This document shows positions 3,545 through 32,389 of a DNA stretch of 32,432 nt, one piece after another. Location: assembly GCA_964363945.1 (NCBI GenBank), contig CAYIKF010000004.1, positions 1 through 32,432 of the forward strand. Reading direction: 5' to 3'. Under the pieces are notes generated by a model. It was not told the origin of the DNA, did no database searches, and saw nothing but the letters and a program-made list of their open reading frames with translations. Position 1 is the stretch's first letter. Every line of letters starts with the position of its first letter. This DNA is from an uncultured Gammaproteobacteria bacterium. GTDB taxonomy: Bacteria > Patescibacteriota > Microgenomatia > UBA8517 > JACQJR01. The translations under genes were made by a program, and so were the position numbers.

Positions 3545-4645
3545 TTACCGCAATAACCCTTTTACCCAATCCCTTACCTCTCCCCATGTTCCGTCGCGGG
3601 GAGTGAGAACCCACTGGTTATCATACAGAGGAGAAATAGGAGGATGCACAAGAAAACCGGTTTGTGCATCACCCACTGCTCCACCGTCCAGAACCACACT
3701 TTTAATCTTCTCTTTATCAAGCCGTAGCATCATACGTGCGAGAATGGGGAGGTCATCCTCGGGTATGTCAGTTTCCACAGAACTCACGACCGTATCCCAT
3801 ACTTTTTTCAGTTTGCGAGGATTAAGCAAAATCTTCGGGGAAAGCAGTTTTTGTTTTATACTCAGGAGAACCTTTTGCTGCCTGCTACTCCTTGCAAAGT
3901 CAGTTCCTTCCTCACCTTCTGCGTTTCGGGAACGCACAAACTTGAGCGCTGTTTGTCCGTCCATAATTTGTTTGCCCTTCTCAAAGTGCACATGTTCATA
4001 CCGGCAGCGAAACTCTGGATCTCCGCCGCACTCATCAGTTTCTCGACCAGGAATAGGATACTTATTATCATCAAAGGTGCGCTCGACCTCAACTTCAGCA
4101 CCACCCAGCAGATCAACCAACTGCACAAATCCAGAAAAATCGACTGCTGCCCCGTAATGGACCGGTTGATCAATAATTTCGGTAACTGAAGCTTTTGCTA
4201 AAATCACTCCTCCGCCTTCTCTTTTTTGGTTGCCGTAGTAATAGGCAGTATTTAACTTCGCACGTAGTGATGAAATCCAAATATCTCGAGGCAAAGAAAG
4301 AAAGACTGGATTGCTACCCTTATGGTCCAAAGAGACAAATATCATGGTGTCGGTCAATTCTGGTGCTTCATGCCCTGCGCCACCAACTCCCAATAACAAG
4401 ATACTTGTGCGGCCACCCTGACTCTCAAGCATCGAGGGTGAACCAAAAAGAAAGAGTGTTGCCATCTTTGGGAGGAAGAACACGCGCACGCCAATATTAC
4501 CGAGTGGCTCCCTGAGAAGAACAAAGAGAGCTGCCAACAAAAGGAGTGCCCCGCCCACAAACACTACCCGTGCCAGCAGGACGTGTGAGAGAAGTTTTCG
4601 TTTTATTCGAGAAATAAGGCGAGAAAATGAGGTATAATTAACCAC
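3545..4645 (-). CDS. LytR-CpsA-Psr (LCP) family glycopolymer transferase
   Basis: N-terminal TM; LTDTMIF, SLPRDIW, KLNTAY, FVRSR, DFARSSRQQ motifs; GTG start with AAGGAG upstream (4654-4659, minus strand). Confidence 0.93.
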   Translation of the reverse strand: MVNYTSFSRLISRIKRKLLSHVLLARVVFVGGALLLLAALFVLLREPLGNIGVRVFFLPKMATLFLFGSPSMLESQGGRTSILLLGVGGAGHEAPELTDTMIFVSLDHKGSNPVFLSLPRDIWISSLRAKLNTAYYYGNQKREGGGVILAKASVTEIIDQPVHYGAAVDFSGFVQLVDLLGGAEVEVERTFDDNKYPIPGRETDECGGDPEFRCRYEHVHFEKGKQIMDGQTALKFVRSRNAEGEEGTDFARSSRQQKVLLSIKQKLLSPKILLNPRKLKKVWDTVVSSVETDIPEDDLPILARMMLRLDKEKIKSVVLDGGAVGDAQTGFLVHPPISPLYDNQWVLTPRDGTWGEVRDWVKGLLR

Positions 4646-4665
4646 GAAAGATACTCCTTTTGTTC

Positions 4666-6597
4666 ATGAGTACTATTGTAACGAATTTAAATCCCCGCCA
4701 ACAAGAGGCGGTCACTTTTTTTGGGGGACCATTACTTATCTTAGCAGGCGCGGGAAGCGGCAAAACACGCGTCCTCACCCACCGTGCAGCCTGGTTAATC
4801 AAAGAAAAAGGTATTCCTTCTGAAAATCTTATCTTGGTAACCTTCACCAATAAAGCAGCAGGCGAGATGAGAGAAAGAATAAAAAAATTACTAACCACTA
4901 ATCACCCCGCCGAAGGCGAGGCTCGCCAAGGGCGGCAATCACTAATCACTCCTCCCCTTGCCTGCACTTTCCATTCCTTTTGTGCACGAGTACTACGCTC
5001 TTATGGCGAGAATATCAGCGTCCCGCGTCACTTTGTCATTTATGATGAAAATGACCAGCAAGAGGCAATAAAAGAGGTACTCACAAAGCTCGGTATGGGA
5101 GTGACCGCCATTAAACCCTCTTCAGTGCTTACGGTAATTTCTCAAGCAAAGAATGAAATGGTAACTGCAGAAGAGTATGCGCAGCTTTCTCGGGGGGAAT
5201 GGCAGCGGCACGTTGCAGTGGTATATCAGGAGTATGAGAAACTGTTGCGCGAGGTGGGGGCGTGCGATTTCGATGATCTCCTGCTTTTGGTTATCAAACT
5301 CTTTGAAGAACACCCCGATATTCGTGAGCGGTATCAAAAAATTTATCAGTATGTACTTGTTGACGAATGGCAAGATACCAATCGCGCGCAATACCGCTTG
5401 ACAAAACTCCTTGCAAAAGAACACCACAATCTGACAGTGGTAGGCGATGCCGCACAAAGTATATACAGTTGGCGGGGCGCAGACTATCGAAATATCGAAT
5501 ACCTTATGCGCGACTTCCCGGACATCACCGTTATTAACCTTGAGCAAAACTACCGCTCAACCCAGACAATTCTTGATGCCGCCTTCCATGTCATATCAAA
5601 AAACAGAACCCATCCAATCCTTAAACTGTGGACAAAAAATGATAAAGGCGAAAAAATAACGCTCTACCAAGCGCATAGTGAGCTTGAGGAAGCAGCATTC
5701 GTGGTAAGCGAAATTGAAAACCTAATAACCTACTCACCTAATAGCCCAATAACCTCTTCCTATCGTGATTTCGCGGTATTGTATCGTACCAATGCCCAAT
5801 CACGCGTGCTTGAGGAAGCAATGCTGCACGCTGGTATTCCTTATGTATTAATCGGGGGAGTACGGTTTTATGAGCGCAAAGAAGTAAAGGACATGCTTGC
5901 ATACCTGCGTCTCTTGGTTAATCCAAAGGATTCTGTATCACAAAAAAGGGCCGAGAAACTAGGTAAAAATCGTCTGAAAAAATTCACAACACTACGCCAA
6001 TCATTAGATGATAACCTTACTACGCTCGAGATTCTCGACAGTGTACTTGACACCACCGGATATCTTAATCTTTACGACACGGATGACCCAGAAGATGCCG
6101 CCCGACTGGAAAATATCAAAGAGTTGCGCTCTGTTGCGGCGGAATTTCCCGATGTGTACGAATTCTTGGAACAAGTCGCCCTGGTTGAGACAGCACAGAC
6201 TAGTAAAGGAGTTATACGTGATGCGGACCACCTGCCAGCGTCTGAGCGCAGCAATGGCGGGCAGGTAACACTCATGACCGCCCATGCCGCAAAGGGACTG
6301 GAGTTTCCAATTGTTTTTATCGTTGGTTTAGAAGAAGGCCTTTTCCCCCATAGTCGGGCGTTTGAGAGAGTTGAGGAACTGGAAGAAGAGCGTCGACTTT
6401 GTTATGTGGGAATCACTCGGGCAAAACAAAAACTATTTCTTACCTTTGCTGACCGACGCTTACTTTTTGGTCAGCGAACCAGTAATATTCCTTCTCGTTT
6501 TTTATCAGATATTCCAGAGGAACTATTTGAACAACCCGTTTCTTTTACACAAACACCAACATGGTCATGGCTAGACAAAACGAGCTACGAGGATTAG
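4666..6597 (+). CDS. pcrA: ATP-dependent SF1A DNA helicase PcrA/UvrD
   Basis: LAGAGSGKT, TFTNKAA, VDEWQDTN, GDAAQSIYSWRGA, NYRS, TAHAAKGLEF, EEERRLCYVGITRA; ATG 4666 preferred over TTG 4660. Confidence 0.95.
   Translation: MSTIVTNLNPRQQEAVTFFGGPLLILAGAGSGKTRVLTHRAAWLIKEKGIPSENLILVTFTNKAAGEMRERIKKLLTTNHPAEGEARQGRQSLITPPLACTFHSFCARVLRSYGENISVPRHFVIYDENDQQEAIKEVLTKLGMGVTAIKPSSVLTVISQAKNEMVTAEEYAQLSRGEWQRHVAVVYQEYEKLLREVGACDFDDLLLLVIKLFEEHPDIRERYQKIYQYVLVDEWQDTNRAQYRLTKLLAKEHHNLTVVGDAAQSIYSWRGADYRNIEYLMRDFPDITVINLEQNYRSTQTILDAAFHVISKNRTHPILKLWTKNDKGEKITLYQAHSELEEAAFVVSEIENLITYSPNSPITSSYRDFAVLYRTNAQSRVLEEAMLHAGIPYVLIGGVRFYERKEVKDMLAYLRLLVNPKDSVSQKRAEKLGKNRLKKFTTLRQSLDDNLTTLEILDSVLDTTGYLNLYDTDDPEDAARLENIKELRSVAAEFPDVYEFLEQVALVETAQTSKGVIRDADHLPASERSNGGQVTLMTAHAAKGLEFPIVFIVGLEEGLFPHSRAFERVEELEEERRLCYVGITRAKQKLFLTFADRRLLFGQRTSNIPSRFLSDIPEELFEQPVSFTQTPTWSWLDKTSYED
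4890..4950. repeat. ACTAATC heptamer array interrupted by a 30-bp GC-rich palindromic element (4906-4935)
   Basis: actaacc actaatc ac[CCCGCCGAAGGCGAGGCTCGCCAAGGGCGG]caatc actaatc act; removing the bracket restores the 7-nt phase. Confidence 0.88.
5721..5755. repeat. Octamer tandem array (CCTAATAA-like, 4 units) in pcrA
   Basis: cctaataa cctactca cctaatag cccaataa cct; encodes NLITYSPNSPITS. Confidence 0.75.
6230..6266. repeat. CCTGCC-type palindromic insertion in pcrA
   Basis: ACCTGCC agcgtctgagcgcagcaatggcg GGCAGGT (7-bp perfect inverted repeat); encodes HLPASERSNGG just before VTLMT. Confidence 0.78.
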
Positions 6598-7577
6598 ACA
6601 AAGTCACTCACCCTTTACAATCGCGGGAGTGGGGAGAGTTTAGAGAGAAAACTGGTGTTGAAGTTGTAAGAGGTAAAGACCTGCCTGCGCAGGCAGGCTT
6701 TCAACTCACAATCCATAAAATCCCATATACCCCATGGTCAATTGGCTACCTTCCCAAAGGACCACTTCCGACAAAACAGACCATCGACGAATTAAAAAAG
6801 ATTGGAGAAGAAAATAGGTGTATTTTTATTCAGCTTGAACCCAATATAGAACGATTTAAGAATTATGATTTAAGATTTAAGAATTTAGGATTACGAACAT
6901 CAATCCGTCCACTTTTTACAAAATACAACTTCGTTATTGATTTGACAAAAAGCGAAGAAGAATTACTTGCAGCAATGCATCCGAAAACCCGATATAATAT
7001 CCGAGTTGCCCAAAAACATGGTGTAACGGTTAAAGAAAGAACAGACGACGAAGCGTTTAAAATTTACTTAAAGCTCTATTTCGAAACAACAAAACGCCAA
7101 AAATATTTCGGCCATACACCAGAGTATCATCGTTTGCTCTGGCAAACTCTAAATGAAAATTTAAAATTGAAAATTGAAAATTCTGATAGGGTTATTCCTC
7201 ATTTGCTAATCGCCTCCTACAAAGGCATTCCACTCACAGCATGGCTGCTCTTACAGTACAAGGATACCCTTTATTATCCCTATGGCGGCTCATCAGAAGA
7301 ACATAAAAACGTCATGGCAAGTAACCTTATTATGTGGGAAGCAATAAAACTTGGAAAAAAATTAGGTTGTAAAACGTTCGATCTCTGGGGCGCCCTCAGC
7401 CCAAATCCAGATCCAAAAGACCCATGGTATGGATTTCATCGATTTAAACAAGGTTATGGCGGGCGACTTGTAGAATATGTTGGAAGTTATGATCTCGTCT
7501 TAAATCCGCTTCTTTACTGGGGGTTTCATTTAATTGATAAACTGCGTTGGATAGTTTTACGCTTAAGGCCTCTCTAA
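6561..7577 (+). CDS. FemAB/FemX-family peptidoglycan bridge aminoacyltransferase
   Basis: HPLQSREWG, YLPKGP, KTRYNIRVA, YYPYGGS, FDLWG, GFHRFKQGYGG; start could be 6561 or 6567 and overlaps the pcrA 3' end. Confidence 0.9.
   Translation: MVMARQNELRGLDKVTHPLQSREWGEFREKTGVEVVRGKDLPAQAGFQLTIHKIPYTPWSIGYLPKGPLPTKQTIDELKKIGEENRCIFIQLEPNIERFKNYDLRFKNLGLRTSIRPLFTKYNFVIDLTKSEEELLAAMHPKTRYNIRVAQKHGVTVKERTDDEAFKIYLKLYFETTKRQKYFGHTPEYHRLLWQTLNENLKLKIENSDRVIPHLLIASYKGIPLTAWLLLQYKDTLYYPYGGSSEEHKNVMASNLIMWEAIKLGKKLGCKTFDLWGALSPNPDPKDPWYGFHRFKQGYGGRLVEYVGSYDLVLNPLLYWGFHLIDKLRWIVLRLRPL
6680..6697. repeat. Perfect 18-bp palindrome CCTGCCTGCGCAGGCAGG, in frame (LPAQAG)
   Basis: Self-reverse-complementary; 6677-6697 matches 8016-8036 with 1 mismatch. 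Confidence 0.93.
6853..6887. repeat. GATTTAA heptamer array (5 units) in the femAB-like gene
   Basis: gatttaa gaattat gatttaa gatttaa gaattta; encodes RFKNYDLRFKNL. Confidence 0.88.
7152..7184. repeat. GAAAATT heptamer array in the femAB-like gene
   Basis: aat gaaaatt taaaatt gaaaatt gaaaatt ct; encodes NENLKLKIENS; identical to 1259-1291. Confidence 0.92.
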
Positions 7578-7639: not shown

Positions 7640-10555
7640 TTACGGCTTGTAGCCTCCACAAAACATTTTATATTCACAATTTTGACATAAAATTGAGCCG
7701 GAGCAGGTAAAGTCACTTGTTGCGATTTCTTGGGATACTTTGAGTATCTCTTGTTTTGCAGCGTTAAGTTGCTCTTGCGTCCGTGTTGTTGTTAATTTCT
7801 TTCCTCCCTCGAAAAAATAAAGAGAAAGTGTGAGATCCTCCGGTCTTCTTGCAAACGGCTCCTCTTTTACCTCTGTGCCAGCTAGAGCATACACTGTTAA
7901 TTGTAAATCATCTGCTAATTCTTTATCGGACGGGAGTTTTGCTCCTGTTTTATAATCAATGATTTCTATGCCATTCTTAGTTTTATCCACTCTGTCAATC
8001 TTGCCGCCGATTTTCAGACCTGCCTGCGCAGGCGGGTTTTCTATACGAAACACAAAGGGATGTTCCATAAGAATTGGGACATGTCGAGGATTAAACTCAT
8101 CTTTAAAATACTCCTCAAGGTATCCATACCCTCTTTTTTTCATTAAGCTCTCATGTTGTTTGGAGGAGTAACCCTCACGAATCCAATTCCCCCCATATAA
8201 CTTCCTAAGCTCATCAAGCGTTCCCTTTTTTCGTGCTTTGACGGTGCTATAAAAATCAGCTATTGTTTTATGAAGTGTTATCCCAAAACTTTGTGCTGCT
8301 GAAGGAGTAACAGGAACTCGGACGATATATTTTAACTTGTAATGAAGCGGGCATACTTTAAATTCTTGTATTTGTGAATAGGAAAGATAGGTAACAGGAA
8401 TTCTCACTATTTTTTCTTGCTCAACTTCGTGATCGCCCTTTGCCCACTCAAGGAGTGAAAGCTGGGTAGTTGGTGATTGGTGATCAGTGATTGGTGATTG
8501 GTTAATTGCATCAGTACCCAATGCTTCAAGAACAAAGGGCGAAAGTTTTCTTTCGCGTTTTCCTTCACCGTAATAATTAGCAGCTGTTAAAAATAATCGG
8601 TCGCGTGCGCGTGTCATCCCGACATAAAAAAGTCTTCGTTCCTCCTCGATATGATAATCACCTACCGGCAAGTCTTCTTTGATTAACTCTTCAGGAATAG
8701 GAATTTGTTCTCTGCGCTCATAGGTCGGAAAACGACCGGCAACAAGATTAACTAAAAACACAATAGGAAATTCAAGGCCTTTTGAGGAGTGAACTGTTAA
8801 GATGTACACCGCGTTAAGTCTATCCCAATCAATATCAACTGCTTGCGGTGACTCTCCCAATTCCATTGAAAGCCCAATCCAATCAACGACCGCCGTAATA
8901 CTTGCGTCCTCATGTTCTGTTTCATATGTTTTAAGTTTGTCAAAAAAACGGCTAATATTCTGAGTGCGGCGTTCTTCGAGCTGACTTTCTGGTTTTGCCA
9001 ATTTAGCTAACAGTCCTGTATCCTCAAGAAAATAAAACAAAAGTTGTCCTGCAGTCTCGCGTCGGGCTGCCTTTAAGTGTCTATTGACCATTGCGATAAA
9101 TTTATCAATTGCTTCCTTTGTCTCTTTCCTAACAAAGATTTTGTTGACATCCTCACATGCCTCAAAGAGCGAAAGATTAAAACGCCTCGCATAGTTCATA
9201 ATCGCAGCCAAATCACGTGCAGGGATATCGAAATGGTCCATGGAGAGCACGCGGTAAAGTGATATTGAATCTTCAAAGTTGTATAAAACTTTAAGATAAG
9301 CAATTAAATCTTTTATTTCTTCTTGGCGGAATAACTGACCAGGACCCAAAAATTGGAAGGGAATACCGGCTCGAGAAAATGCACGAGTGAAGGCTTCTGC
9401 ATGGTTATTGGCCCGGACTAAAATAGCAAAATCAGAGAAACTCTTATCTCCTTTTTGGACCAAAGAAAGAATTGTTTTTGCCACACGATCTGCTTCGTTC
9501 TCAACTCTGTCTGTATATAAAAATTCAATCTGTTCCCCTTTTTTCTTTCGTGCAGAAACAAGTTTTTTATCAATCTTTTCTTTTACCTCAAGTCTGTCTG
9601 GATTGTTGTGTTGAACAAGTTGATATGCTCTGTCTAGAATCTCTTGGGTTGAACGATAATTCTCGGTTAGGGTAATAATCTTTGCTTTTGGAAAGTGTTT
9701 GCGAAATTGCATCACATTTGAAACCGCTGCGCCCCGAAATCTGTAAATGCTTTGGTCATCGTCTGCTACGGCTGTAATGTTCGCCCGTTTTCCCGCAAGT
9801 AAAATTGCTAACTCATTTTGAGCATAGTTTGTATCTTGGAATTCATCAACTAAAATGTATTTAAATTGTTCTTTATACCGTTTCAAAATGGCAGGACGAC
9901 GCCGAAAAAGGAGTAGTGCGTTGGTAATTAAATCACCGAAGTCCATAACTCCCTCTTTTACCTTTAACTCTGTGTATTTCTGATACGCTTTTGCCAACTC
10001 CACATACTTTTCAATTTCCTCTTTTTCATACTTTTCGCTTTTAGCTTTTCGCTTTTCGCCCACCCACTTTATGTAATCAGTGGGCGTCACATCCTCATCC
10101 TGGAGTCGAGAAAAATGCTGCAGCATTCCACCAACAAATTTTGTTGGATTGCCTAGAGGTCTAAAGTAGGAAAGCTCAAAAGAAAAAAGATTGGCTCGTA
10201 TAAGTTGTGTTGCTTCCGCTTCTGTTAAGAGGCGGTAATTCGTTGGCAATCCAATAGCAAGCGCTTCAGTACGCAAAATCCGATCGCAAAACGCATGGAA
10301 GGTTGATATCCACATTTGGGTATAGCCATAGGGGACTGCAATATCAACACGCTCCTCCATCTCACGTGCCGCCTTTTCAGTAAAGGTAAGAGCTAGAATC
10401 TCAGAGGGCAACGCTTGCTCTGTGACAATCAAATGTTTAATTCGTTCTGTTACAACCGTGGTCTTCCCCGTCCCCGCACCAGCAATAATCAACAGCGGCC
10501 CACCTTTGTAGGTCACTGCTTGTTGCTGCTCTTTATTAAGTTCAATATCATCCAT
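7640..10555 (-). CDS. UvrD-family helicase fused to a C-terminal PD-(D/E)XK (RecB/AddA/AdnAB-like) nuclease with a putative 4-Cys Fe-S site
   Basis: AGAGTGKT, VDEFQDTN, TVHSSKGLEF, EEERRLFYVGMTRA; C-terminus SYSQI..CPLHY, GKIDRVD, IIDYKTG, QLTVYA, CQNCEYKMFC. Confidence 0.93.
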   Translation of the reverse strand: MDDIELNKEQQQAVTYKGGPLLIIAGAGTGKTTVVTERIKHLIVTEQALPSEILALTFTEKAAREMEERVDIAVPYGYTQMWISTFHAFCDRILRTEALAIGLPTNYRLLTEAEATQLIRANLFSFELSYFRPLGNPTKFVGGMLQHFSRLQDEDVTPTDYIKWVGEKRKAKSEKYEKEEIEKYVELAKAYQKYTELKVKEGVMDFGDLITNALLLFRRRPAILKRYKEQFKYILVDEFQDTNYAQNELAILLAGKRANITAVADDDQSIYRFRGAAVSNVMQFRKHFPKAKIITLTENYRSTQEILDRAYQLVQHNNPDRLEVKEKIDKKLVSARKKKGEQIEFLYTDRVENEADRVAKTILSLVQKGDKSFSDFAILVRANNHAEAFTRAFSRAGIPFQFLGPGQLFRQEEIKDLIAYLKVLYNFEDSISLYRVLSMDHFDIPARDLAAIMNYARRFNLSLFEACEDVNKIFVRKETKEAIDKFIAMVNRHLKAARRETAGQLLFYFLEDTGLLAKLAKPESQLEERRTQNISRFFDKLKTYETEHEDASITAVVDWIGLSMELGESPQAVDIDWDRLNAVYILTVHSSKGLEFPIVFLVNLVAGRFPTYERREQIPIPEELIKEDLPVGDYHIEEERRLFYVGMTRARDRLFLTAANYYGEGKRERKLSPFVLEALGTDAINQSPITDHQSPTTQLSLLEWAKGDHEVEQEKIVRIPVTYLSYSQIQEFKVCPLHYKLKYIVRVPVTPSAAQSFGITLHKTIADFYSTVKARKKGTLDELRKLYGGNWIREGYSSKQHESLMKKRGYGYLEEYFKDEFNPRHVPILMEHPFVFRIENPPAQAGLKIGGKIDRVDKTKNGIEIIDYKTGAKLPSDKELADDLQLTVYALAGTEVKEEPFARRPEDLTLSLYFFEGGKKLTTTRTQEQLNAAKQEILKVSQEIATSDFTCSGSILCQNCEYKMFCGGYKP
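8019..8036. repeat. 18-bp near-perfect palindrome CCTGCCTGCGCAGGCGGG, in frame (PPAQAG on the minus strand)
   Basis: Second copy of 6680-6697; removal gives IENLKIGGKID. Confidence 0.92.
8463..8504. repeat. TTGGTGA heptamer array (6 units) in the helicase-nuclease linker
   Basis: tgggtag ttggtga ttggtga tcagtga ttggtga ttggtta; encodes NQSPITDHQSPTTQ; the reverse-complement unit TCACCAA matches the pcrA array unit. Confidence 0.9.
10031..10058. repeat. CTTTTCG heptamer array (4 units)
   Basis: cttttcg cttttag cttttcg cttttcg; encodes GEKRKAKSEK. Confidence 0.88.
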
Positions 10556-22363: not shown

Positions 22364-22405
22364 CCTGCCTCGCTCGCCTCGCGTCGAAGCGGGCCGGCAG
22401 GCAGG
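22364..22405. repeat. 20-bp palindrome CCTGCCTGCCGGCAGGCAGG interrupted by a 22-bp GC-rich insert
   Basis: CCTGCCT[cgctcgcctcgcgtcgaagcgg]GCCGGCAGGCAGG, between the putative promoter and the ATG of the PEGA gene. Confidence 0.85.
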
Positions 22406-22545: not shown

Positions 22546-22617
22546 GGCCTGGTAGCCAAGAGGTAAGGCTGGAGTCTGCAAAACTCCTATGCGCGGGTTC
22601 GAATCCCGCCCAGGCCT
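22546..22617 (+). tRNA. tRNA-Cys (GCA); CCA not encoded
   Basis: Acceptor GGCCTGG/CCAGGCC, discriminator U; anticodon arm GGAGT-CT-GCA-AA-ACTCC; T arm GCGGG-TTCGAAT-CCCGC; upstream TGG-TACAAT (22527-22535). Confidence 0.97.
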
Positions 22618-31300: not shown

Positions 31301-32389
31301 ATGGTGATACTAGGTATAGAGACTAGCTGCGATGAGACTGCGGCAAGTGTTGTGGAAGACGGGCGAAAAGTTTTATCACATGTACTTGCTTCATCAGCTG
31401 ATATGCATGCAAAAACAGGAGGTATTATTCCTGAAGTTGCAGCGCGTGAACAGGTAAAAGCAATTTTACCAGTAATTAATGAAGCAATTGAAAATTGTAA
31501 ATTGAAAATTGAAAATTTAGATGCCATAGCAGTAACAGCCGGTCCAGGGTTAATTGGTTCTCTCTTAGTGGGAGTTGAAACCGCACGAACGCTCGCGTAC
31601 GTCTGGAATAAGCCAATCGTGCCTGTTAATCACCTTGTTGGACACATATACGCGAATTGGCTGGTAGCAGGTAGCACGTGGCATGTAGAAAAACCACAAG
31701 CCACAAGCTATAAACCACACGCTCCAGAATTTCCTGCTTTGGCGTTAGTAGTATCGGGCGGGCATACAGACTTAGTTTTAATGACAGCTCATGGAAAAAT
31801 GAAATGGATTGGAGGAACACGAGACGATGCGGCAGGAGAAGCATTCGACAAGACAGCACGGCTTTTAGGACTCCCCTATCCCGGAGGGCCAGCTATAGCC
31901 GCCGAAGCGGCTAAATTCGAAGCACGAAATTCGAAGCACGAAAAATTACACATGTTTCCAAGACCAATGATGGATGAGAAAAACTTTGATTGGAGTTTTT
32001 CGGGGCTCAAAACTGCGGTTCTTAGGGAAACTGAAAAACTTAAAAACAAAAAGACTAAAAAACTCTCAGGAGAAGAAATCTCTTGCTTGGCAGCAGAGAT
32101 TCAGGAAGCGATTGTTGATGTACTGGTAACAAAAACTATTCGCGCCGTCAAGAAATTTAAACCACAGTCTCTGCTACTGGGTGGGGGCGTTGCAGCCAAC
32201 CAACGGCTGTGTGAAGAATTTAAATTGAAAATTGAAAATTTAAAATTGAAAATTAACCTACATGTCCCTCCACCACTTCTTTGTACTGATAATGCCAGCT
32301 ATATTGCAGCAGCTGCATACTATAACTACAAACCTGTCGACTGGAGAAAGATAACAGTAAAACCAGAGTTAACGATTATGGGAGAATGA
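31301..32389 (+). CDS. tsaD: tRNA N6-adenosine threonylcarbamoyltransferase TsaD
   Basis: LGIETSCDET, GPGLIGSL, HLVGH, VSGGHT, DDAAGEAFDK, YPGGP, SFSGLKT, GGVAAN, CTDNA. Confidence 0.97.
   Translation: MVILGIETSCDETAASVVEDGRKVLSHVLASSADMHAKTGGIIPEVAAREQVKAILPVINEAIENCKLKIENLDAIAVTAGPGLIGSLLVGVETARTLAYVWNKPIVPVNHLVGHIYANWLVAGSTWHVEKPQATSYKPHAPEFPALALVVSGGHTDLVLMTAHGKMKWIGGTRDDAAGEAFDKTARLLGLPYPGGPAIAAEAAKFEARNSKHEKLHMFPRPMMDEKNFDWSFSGLKTAVLRETEKLKNKKTKKLSGEEISCLAAEIQEAIVDVLVTKTIRAVKKFKPQSLLLGGGVAANQRLCEEFKLKIENLKLKINLHVPPPLLCTDNASYIAAAAYYNYKPVDWRKITVKPELTIMGE
31486..31518. repeat. GAAAATT heptamer array in tsaD
   Basis: aatt gaaaatt gtaaatt gaaaatt gaaaatt t; encodes IENCKLKIENL. Confidence 0.9.
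31663..31721. repeat. Inverted pair of heptamer arrays in tsaD
   Basis: ggtagca ggtagca cgtggca tgtagaa / ccacaag ccacaag ctataaa ccacacg; encodes VAGSTWHVEKPQATSYKPH. Confidence 0.8.
31913..31940. repeat. Perfect 14-bp (7+7) tandem duplication in tsaD
   Basis: AAATTCGAAGCACG x2; encodes KFEARNSKHE. Confidence 0.9.
32028..32064. repeat. AAACTnAA octamer array in tsaD
   Basis: aaactgaa aaacttaa aaacaaaa agactaaa aaact; encodes TEKLKNKKTKKL. Confidence 0.7.
32214..32254. repeat. GAAAATT heptamer array in tsaD
   Basis: aagaatt taaatt gaaaatt gaaaatt taaaatt gaaaatt; encodes EFKLKIENLKLKI. Confidence 0.9.

Follow-up and report, generated by a model that had tools for sequence, protein, structure and literature searches.

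The stretch examined here, which we call the window, comprises 32,432 nucleotides (contig CAYIKF010000004.1 of assembly GCA_964363945.1) and carries, within the gene for a PcrA/UvrD-type superfamily-1 DNA helicase (pcrA), a 30-nt palindromic insert at positions 4906-4935 that lies inside an array of tandem heptamers. The insert is probably a copy of a tiny, non-autonomous, strand-specific mobile palindromic element, which entered a pre-existing heptamer array of the kind that it prefers. The insertion adds exactly 30 nt and keeps both the phase of the array and the gene's reading frame. In what follows, G000 is the assembly holding the window (as its contig C4) and G001 is a genome of the same genus, used for comparison.

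The insert, CCCGCCGAAGGCGAGGCTCGCCAAGGGCGG (4906-4935, forward strand), consists of one C and a 29-nt palindromic core (4907-4935). In the outer stem CCGCC (4907-4911) pairs with GGCGG (4931-4935), in the inner stem GGCGAG (4915-4920) pairs with CTCGCC (4922-4927) around a central G (4921), and the triplets GAA (4912-4914) and AAG (4928-4930) remain unpaired between the two. To the left, the forward-strand array ACTAACC ACTAATC AC (4890-4905) codes ..L T T N H; to the right, CAATC ACTAATC ACT (4936-4950, same strand) codes Q S L I T, and its first base, the C at 4936, is the flanking C of the family signature given below. The original prediction held that deleting 4906-4935 would restore a perfect in-phase unit and that the insert has CCGCC/GGCGG ends and a GGCGAG/CTCGCC inner stem; the window sequence bears out both points. 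Excision leaves ACTAACC ACTAATC ACCAATC ACTAATC ACT, i.e. four in-phase heptamers and ACT, in which 21 of 24 positions match at a lag of 7, a value reached at 1 of 32,352 window positions once a 30-nt gap is removed. Excision of 4907-4936 gives the identical product, and the boundary of the insert is ambiguous by one C. The G+C content of the insert is 80%, compared with 43.7% for the window. As single-stranded DNA, either strand folds at -10.6 or -10.7 kcal/mol into a 5-bp stem, a 3x3 internal loop, a second 5-bp stem and a 3-nt loop, with z-scores of -1.9 to -3.3 against shuffled sequences. The insert reads in frame as PAEGEARQGR, giving LLTTNH-PAEGEARQGR-QSLIT with the array, and direct reading of the 30-mer finds no stop codon in any of the six frames; the unit that spans it, ACCAATC, lacks the in-frame TAA that repeated ACTAATC units would create. 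At the Rfam gathering threshold the whole window matches one tRNA only, and the best Rfam match within 4800-5050 has E = 1.2.

The host gene lies at 4660-6597 on the forward strand, from a TTG at 4660 (database clusters begin at the ATG at 4666). Its product matches Pfam UvrD-helicase (PF00580, 5e-88), UvrD_C (2e-67) and the PcrA structure 1PJR (E 4.9e-155), and orthologs are found in all 41 related genomes. Among named PcrA proteins, those nearest to it carry the labels Candidatus Microgenomates, Blackburnbacteria and Shapirobacteria, and by these submitters' labels the host is a bacterium of the Candidate Phyla Radiation (CPR). Array and insert fall between TFTNKAAGEMRER and TFHSFC, where the window protein is 14 residues longer than the solved PcrA, in a loop bounded by the helicase motifs TFTNKAAxEMxxR and TFHSFC. 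This loop measured 12-46 residues in the 118 of 121 homologs that could be parsed (3 were unparsable), and in many of them the loop is a heptamer array in translation (TNHQSLTT, ITNSQLPITN, VNSVNSVNS and HNSKFIIHNS, for instance); array-only loops of the form TNHQSL(I/T)T occur in more distant homologs too. Peptides of palindromes are found inside such loop arrays, with PPAGG in four homologs and GEARQGR in the window protein and in P0008, which shares 58% identity with it and carries array and palindrome peptide at the corresponding place. In a FastTree phylogeny of 114 homologs with the loop masked, the palindrome-bearing window allele is sister (support 100) to an array-only allele, P0003, and the second palindrome bearer, P0008, stands in a distant clade. 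The label for AATCAC-type arrays requires 13 changes over 14 rows (shuffled mean 13.4), i.e. such arrays are scattered over the tree, and one tight group with branches of 0.014-0.044 mixes short loops, one array-only loop and one array with another palindrome. The pcrA array occupies a length-tolerant surface loop, which is a hotspot with fast turnover.

The order of events at pcrA emerges from the comparison of alleles. Among pcrA loci taken from 30 genomes, G000 included, most have a short loop without an array. G001, whose PcrA has 92% protein identity, reads ACTAACC ACTCGTC AC|CAATC ACTAATC ACT, from which precisely the 30 nt are absent. All three states that the original prediction had envisaged (no array, array only, array with palindrome) hence exist. 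Both genomes hold four units and ACT, and the junction repeats a single C, so that it is simpler to suppose that 30 nt entered the G000 lineage cleanly. That the array preceded the palindrome at pcrA, and that the insertion duplicated at most one C, is thus supported, as is the proposal that the palindrome landed later. A second exact 30-nt presence/absence is seen at the G000 copy C25:4809, in an array within a DNA ligase gene, where G001 reads CGAATTT CGTGCTT|CGTGCTT CGAATTT, with the array kept and the insert absent. Two other origins of the arrangement are ruled out. The array was not born as a 7-bp target-site duplication, since at each of two loci the filled allele exceeds the empty one by just these 30 nt and the units are equal in number. 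Nor did it grow around the palindrome by stalling or slippage, as the left and right units match across the insert and array-only alleles exist.

Independent assemblies agree with this picture. The comparison was made on assembled contigs, and interpretation was confined to those parts of X3 and X5 under contig cover. A 17-kb contig from another study spans 4600-5400 (801 nt) with 3 differences and no gap, and is the filled allele. A contig of 1,115 nt from a further study covers 4600-5358 with 41 differences, 31 gap letters and G001-type changes at 4900 and 4901; by this gap count and these changes it would fit the empty allele. Over 4897-4950 the contig depth sums to 148-255, compared with 4-7 alongside (three runs), and in contigs from other loci the match to the window ends at 4906 and at 4937/4938, beyond which the flanks follow a heptamer-like consensus, e.g. 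CAAAAGT or CAAAAAT. These results set the element boundaries independently and show the element to be frequent in the communities sampled.

The insert belongs to a dispersed family with the 31-nt signature C-CCGCC-N3-GGCGAG-G-CTCGCC-N3-GGCGG-C. G000 holds four copies, namely the window copy, C3:23401 in an ACTAATC array (49 of 50 nt matching the window, flanks included), C3:13455 in an ACCAATC array (no mismatch to the window over a 43-nt alignment) and C25:4809 in a CGAATTT/CGTGCTT array. G001 holds three, of which one is diverged and one, on C5, is identical to the window copy. Over the 492,109 nt of the G000-G001 alignment (281 kept alignments, 86% identity), none of these seven copies occupies a shared orthologous site. 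At the sites of C3:13455, C3:23401 and G001 C5:32812 the other genome holds a different heptamer array, and at G001 C2:93352 both array and copy are absent from G000. The family has therefore spread recently. Five of the seven copies are intragenic, in pcrA, two GT4 glycosyltransferase genes and the genes for an ATP-dependent DNA ligase and TrmD; the copies sit in unrelated genes, in different frames and orientations. PcrA, one GT4 glycosyltransferase and TrmD have in common the peptide module ITNH-PAEGEAR(Q/H)GRQ-SLIT.

Beyond these two genomes, the 21-nt core (at most 2 mismatches) was found in 6 of the 41 relatives, in two families, and a reversed-pattern control gave 0 matches; copies per genome elsewhere number 2-8. 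A species-wide scan for the exact pattern CCGCC-N3-GGCGAG-S-CTCGCC-N3-GGCGG, with one genome per prokaryote species (GTDB), returned at least 113 stretches with the family, of which 80 loci are listed. Many CPR lineages, Omnitrophota, Ignavibacteriota/Melioribacter, Melainabacteria, Elusimicrobia, Bacteroidetes and others appear among the matches listed, where the taxa are the submitters' record labels, some of which are likely wrong. Five carriers have listed genome sizes of 1.6-4.7 Mb, beyond what CPR reach, and hold 2-7 copies each with 0 matches to the control. In the phylum of one of them (G041, from a record labelled Melainabacteria), 3 of 401 sampled genomes carry the family, all of 1.9-2.5 Mb, and none of the genomes in this sample listed at 5 Mb or more does so. 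Strings from the palindrome were absent from the literature searched; none of the papers searched links small mobile repeated elements with heptamers, and the matches listed from the CPR literature include no such elements.

The anatomy of the family was examined in 92 distinct copies from the relatives and the species-wide scan, copies without 30 nt of flank being left out. When the copies are oriented by the central G, a C lies directly on both sides in 92/92; with C, G and C at positions 1, 16 and 31, the element is strand-asymmetric. The base preceding the left C is T in 60/92 (by count of the 3-mer table), and the right flank begins with CA in 42 and with CT in 31. The internal triplets are mostly non-complementary, the commonest pairs being AAA/AAA (10), CTT/TTC (7), GAA/AAG (6), GAA/TCT (5) and AGA/AAA (5), and so each CGCC-N3-GGCG half can fold alone as a triloop mini-hairpin. 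Hirao and colleagues reportedly described C-GAA-G as a very stable type of DNA mini-hairpin. The association with arrays is specific in period and in boundary, since in 26/92 copies the heptanucleotides directly to the left and right of the C plus core agree in at least 6 of 7 positions; no copy does so at periods 4-6 or 8-11, and 0-2 copies do when the boundary is shifted by 1-4 nt. Under a looser rule 32/92 copies lie in arrays, and under a stricter rule 18/92. The units concerned vary (AATCACT, CAATTTT, CAAAAGT, CAAAAAT, CAGCGTT, CAATTTC, CAACCAT, CACGGAT, CTGCACT, CTGAYYT, CAGAGTT and more), and arrays flank copies in the large non-CPR genomes as well.

Whether one class of element targets the other, or both gather at tolerant loops, had been left as a choice by the original prediction. 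Our results favour targeting over tolerant loops for the CCGCC...GGCGG family. Among GC-rich palindromes, 4/60 in G000 have arrays on both sides (null mean 0.14, maximum 2 in 1000 random placements), as does 1/66 in G001 (null 0.12). Six of the seven family copies in these genomes are adjacent to an array, compared with 3 of the 33 copies, in G000 and G001 together, of a second GC-rich palindrome family of similar size and G+C content, the CCTGCCTGCGCAGGCAGG or CCTGCCTGC(CG)GCAGGCAGG family (Fisher p = 1.4e-4). This second family is rarely found in arrays, and arrays on both sides are seen in 4/7 family copies as against 1/33 copies of that second family (Fisher p = 1.8e-3). Because of this excess of copies in arrays, we speak of a preference for them. 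Tolerance is true of the pcrA loop, but it does not explain the difference between the families. When arrays interrupted in phase were sought without bias, the family copies came back at a gap of 30, and other small palindromes at gaps of 18, 19, 21, 24, 28, 33 and 39.

We propose that the element moves as a single-stranded hairpin. The moving form would be either one long hairpin with a 3x3 bubble or two CGCC-N3-GGCG mini-hairpins, and a strand-specific enzyme, supplied in trans, would integrate it beside a C, where the context is usually T-C^...C-A/T. A preference for arrays may arise because tandem repeats, when slipped, leave DNA exposed in single-stranded or structured form, as hairpin tips likewise might. 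Other small palindromes are themselves inserted in palindrome centres, and therefore fit the idea of exposed DNA. At window positions 22371-22393, 150 nt upstream of a tRNA gene (22546-22617), a 23-nt palindromic insert, CGCTCGCCTCGCGTCGAAGCGGG, is centred in a CCTGCCT..GGCAGG palindrome and is absent from G001. An orthologous palindrome inside an AATCAC array (G000 C9:2201-2218, G001 C6:2746-2784) has arms that differ by compensating changes, CCTGCCTGC/GCAGGCAGG as against CCCGCCCGC/GCGGGCG, and in G001 it holds 20 extra nt at its centre, i.e. a nested insertion. Within a genome, spread may also be helped by copying from one array to another where both have the same unit. More tentatively, the 31-nt signature could mark an unrecognised, enzyme-dependent class of minimal mobile DNA, present in many phyla, which integrates strand-specifically and beside C into slipped heptamer arrays used as landing pads. 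If so, the same machinery may also write or replace arrays, which would explain the sites at which 24 of 151 aligned arrays have a different unit in G001.

The gene searches linked no enzyme to the element. Y1 genes (PF01797) occur in 24 of the 41 relatives, G000 and G001 included, and in 5/5 further carriers, and the Y1-like protein of G000 scores 37 bits against the NCBIfam REP_Tyr_transpos cut-off of 80. A link of the element to the REP-associated tyrosine transposases (RAYT; REP, repetitive extragenic palindromic) or to IS200 transposases was rejected, as no association was shown: the core is absent near 14 Y1 loci, two carriers have no Y1 gene and the G000 protein falls below the cut-off. 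The Y1 homolog of G000 (C11:18316-18983, IS200/RAYT-like) has 222 residues with HFH and YIHRNP motifs and reaches the contig end. The two Y1 homologs of G001 are each flanked by hairpins of their own, CCACCTCGAAGGTGG and GACACCTTAAAGGTGT. A Pfam scan of the surroundings of copies took in 111 open reading frames (ORFs) at 37 loci; the original 117 had been reduced by six, belonging to L042 and L052, which duplicate the window and L050. The scanned ORFs are mostly housekeeping, and no mobile-element gene recurs among them; the element is therefore read as non-autonomous.

Several results weigh against a mobile element with a preference for arrays. No Y1 match was found in the carriers G017 (8 copies, 98% complete) and G021, no family core lies within ~1.5 kb of the 14 Y1 loci or anywhere on G000 C11, and the loci around copies, as just described, yielded no recurrent mobile-element gene. 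No exact family match was found in 2.9 million viral contigs, i.e. no vector between phyla is evident there, and 2-8 copies per genome is low for a selfish repeat. Most copies (60-66/92) lie outside arrays, and the phase kept by the others follows from clean insertion into an existing array, so that it is, alone, no proof of targeting. The conservation of the stems in the wide scan is partly by construction, as the search pattern was exact. Polarity at pcrA rests on unit counts and parsimony rather than on an outgroup at the DNA level. The expectation that palindromes fall in arrays more often than by chance was borne out for the GC-rich palindromes of G000, by an effect specific to the family as described above, but not in the indel-only comparison: of the G000/G001 indels of 12 nt or more, 2/48 hairpin inserts and 1/133 others lie in arrays (p = 0.17), under a rule of 21+21 nt of flank by which short arrays were missed. 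Finally, copies within a genome tend to share unit type and flanks (CAGCGTT three times on one contig, CTGAYYT in G044, CTGCACT in G042), and same-unit copies may be duplicates of a composite module rather than independent hits, which weakens the statistics.

This last point leads to the main rival, which we consider unlikely: no dedicated enzyme would be involved, and the palindrome would be copied, guided by homology, from one array to another with the same unit, through short-patch gene conversion or template switching during replication, the arrays serving as portable homology arms. Such copying would give in-phase copies without duplication. It would suit the three of four G000 copies that lie in AATCAC-type arrays, which make up 14 of the 236 period-7 arrays of that genome (p = 8e-4), the near-identity of the window and C3:23401 that extends into their flanks, the module common to three proteins and the unit types common to copies within other genomes. 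However, well over a dozen units host the family and most copies lie outside arrays, and the same boundaries and the C...G...C rule hold in 92/92 copies. The fourth G000 copy, moreover, occupies a CGAATTT/CGTGCTT array of unrelated units, which in G001 is cleanly empty, and homology copying alone does not account for the identity of the 23-nt core between several phyla.

It is very improbable that palindrome and array were ancestral at pcrA and that the lineage of G001 lost the palindrome by precise deletion. The peptide of P0008, alike in sequence and position, might be taken as a sign of common ancestry, and palindromes are unstable in replication. Against this, a slippage deletion between the flanking 7-nt repeats would take out 37 nt, not 30, and would not leave both genomes with four units and ACT and a single repeated C; none of the seven copies is found at a shared orthologous site, and the two bearers stand far apart in the PcrA tree, where they need two changes. 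Equally, we give very little likelihood to the suggestion that indel-tolerant sites, being few, collect arrays and palindromes separately, so that the two co-occur as a side effect. The variable PcrA loop with its many different arrays and inserts, the 24 of 151 aligned G000 arrays that have a different-unit array in G001 and the non-significant indel-only test all speak for it. Yet the control palindrome family in the same genomes lies beside arrays in 3/33 copies compared with 6/7 here, and 26/92 copies across phyla are in arrays although arrays cover only ~2% of G000. That the 29-nt palindrome is not mobile and is maintained by selection because it serves the cell, for example as a binding site or as an RNA or DNA structure, is highly unlikely as well. 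A core identical across phyla, a low copy number and the compensating arm changes of the neighbouring palindrome family between G000 and G001 would be expected under it, but presence differs between sister species at otherwise conserved sites, copies lie in unrelated genes in various frames and orientations, no Rfam family matches and the neighbouring genes have no common theme. An assembly or sequencing artefact is practically negligible: nothing was found in its favour, the filled allele recurs in a contig of another study and the empty allele in that of a further one, the reading frame is kept, and the species scan met the family in independent assemblies, at 113 stretches or more.

A mobile palindromic element that prefers heptamer arrays has its nearest precedent in the small dispersed repeats (SDR) of Nostoc; REP/RAYT systems, miniature inverted-repeat transposable elements (MITE) and Rickettsia palindromic elements (RPE) each fail at least one defining feature. 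The repeats of Nostoc punctiforme and its relatives, reported by Elhai et al. in 2008 (Genome Res 18:1484), are said to be mobile, to include some inverted repeats and to be often nested in-phase in tandem heptameric repeats and in one another. In passages of papers citing that work, SDR are given as 21-27 nt long and restricted to Nostocaceae, with SDR5 precisely inserted into HIP1. The window element resembles them as a very small, dispersed, non-autonomous element with precise insertion, whose filled site in one genome is empty at the orthologous position of a relative (the two exact 30-nt sites of G000 and G001), and, if the Nostoc repeats are nested as said, in its in-phase nesting in heptamer arrays; at 30 nt it is slightly longer. 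Unlike SDR, it is found beyond Nostocaceae, in a Microgenomates-like host and several phyla, sits in frame in essential CPR genes, follows a strict strand rule and probably belongs to a different sequence family.

REPINs are described as miniature mobile DNA (PMC3116915). Like REP and REPIN sequences, the element is a strand-specific imperfect palindrome in the range of 20-40 nt (29-nt core, 11/14 positions paired) with a mismatched middle; it is non-autonomous, makes no target duplication and occurs alongside Y1_Tnp-like genes in G000 and G001. REP sequences, however, are extragenic and number hundreds of copies, whereas this element has 2-8 copies and 5/7 of those in G000 and G001 are intragenic; and in contrast to REP/RAYT pairs, none of the 14 Y1 loci is flanked by the CCGCC...GGCGG palindrome and two carriers show no Y1 match. 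The 2-10 bp target-site duplication of MITE is absent, since filling adds 30 nt to the empty site and repeats no more than 1 nt (C). RPE, reported by Ogata et al. in 2000, are said to be palindromic selfish DNA that adds an in-frame peptide to a tolerant part of a protein, about 100-150 bp long, confined to Rickettsia and not tied to tandem heptamers. The element shares with RPE its palindromic nature and its in-frame insertion in protein-coding genes (PcrA, two GT4 glycosyltransferases, DNA ligase, TrmD), but differs in its 30 nt and its CPR host. Elements of the IS200/IS605 type transpose as single strands, with hairpin ends, a strand-specific short target, no duplication and precise excision; they and their miniature derivatives have two different ends and exceed 100 nt. 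The likeness lies in the hairpin, in the strand-specific insertion beside a short target and in the lack of duplication, and the difference in that a single 29-nt palindrome would have to supply both ends and that C is the only fixed flank. The strict strand rule and the lack of target duplication point to single-strand integration chemistry.

The host array is like known tandem heptanucleotide repeats, i.e. the short tandemly repeated repetitive (STRR) sequences of cyanobacteria and the TAACTGA repeats of Beggiatoaceae, cyanobacteria and Bacteroidetes, in being abundant and built of head-to-tail 7-nt units. To our knowledge, the role of STRR-type arrays has stood unexplained since about 1990. 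Parts of PMC4679880 describe heptanucleotide repeats as the commonest long simple repeats in many genomes, and parts of PMC2700814 describe heptanucleotide elements within Geobacter genes. In the parts of these two papers on which we draw, a conserved palindrome nested in arrays is not described, and the string 'palindrom' occurs 0 times in the main text of PMC4679880. If our interpretation is true, the element is among the smallest mobile DNAs known (30 nt), with an identical core in CPR, Omnitrophota, Ignavibacteriota, Melainabacteria and Elusimicrobia (by submitters' labels), and two unexplained classes of repeat, tandem heptamers and short GC-rich palindromes, are linked. Essential genes of tiny CPR genomes would then gain and swap in-frame peptides within the divergence time of sister species. 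The enzyme, once found, could serve as a tool for integrating small inserts, and filled and empty sites would be sharp strain markers in groundwater metagenomes.

Heptamer arrays extend well beyond pcrA. The G000 assembly comprises 645,885 bp in 66 contigs, with 42.9% G+C and 88% completeness (relatives are listed at ~0.6-1.1 Mb). Tandem Repeats Finder returned 624 rows for it, 236 of period 7 compared with 49, 61 and 74 of periods 6, 8 and 9. Since period 7 dominates, the arrays are a genome-wide feature of G000; the period-7 mask covers 2.1% of G000 and 2.0% of G001. The 151 G000 arrays aligned in G001 divide into 69 that are the same there, 24 with another unit, 54 diverged ones and 4 that are missing, and arrays behave like exchangeable cassettes in fixed slots. 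Within the window, arrays at 6853-6892, 8470-8502, 10031-10059 and 31694-31719 have different units at the orthologous G001 site. Contig C63 of G000 has many long GC-rich stretches, unlike the rest of this 43% G+C assembly, and may be a binning contaminant.

Other repeats and inserts were observed in the course of this work. The perfect 18-nt palindrome CCTGCCTGCGCAGGCAGG lies at window positions 6680-6697 (also 8018-8037) and is kept at the G001 ortholog (C8:6730). Two family copies, L048 (G011) and L035 (G021), have a right arm apparently interrupted by a second small palindrome, ..TCGCCTCGC..GCGAAGCGGG.., and these elements appear to be nested in one another. A period-8 array, AACCTAAT, with 4.6 copies at window positions 5719-5755, lies within pcrA and codes ..LITYSPNSPITSS..; at this place the G001-type protein P0003 carries a longer, different insertion, and the site is a second variable loop of PcrA. 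The PcrA homologs P0080, P0097 and P0098 are ~1000 residues long with the Hint/intein-type Pfam domains PF01079 and PF14890, and in G006 and G011 the helicase match is split inside one open frame of ~1000 residues; these homologs and split matches are probably intein-bearing alleles.

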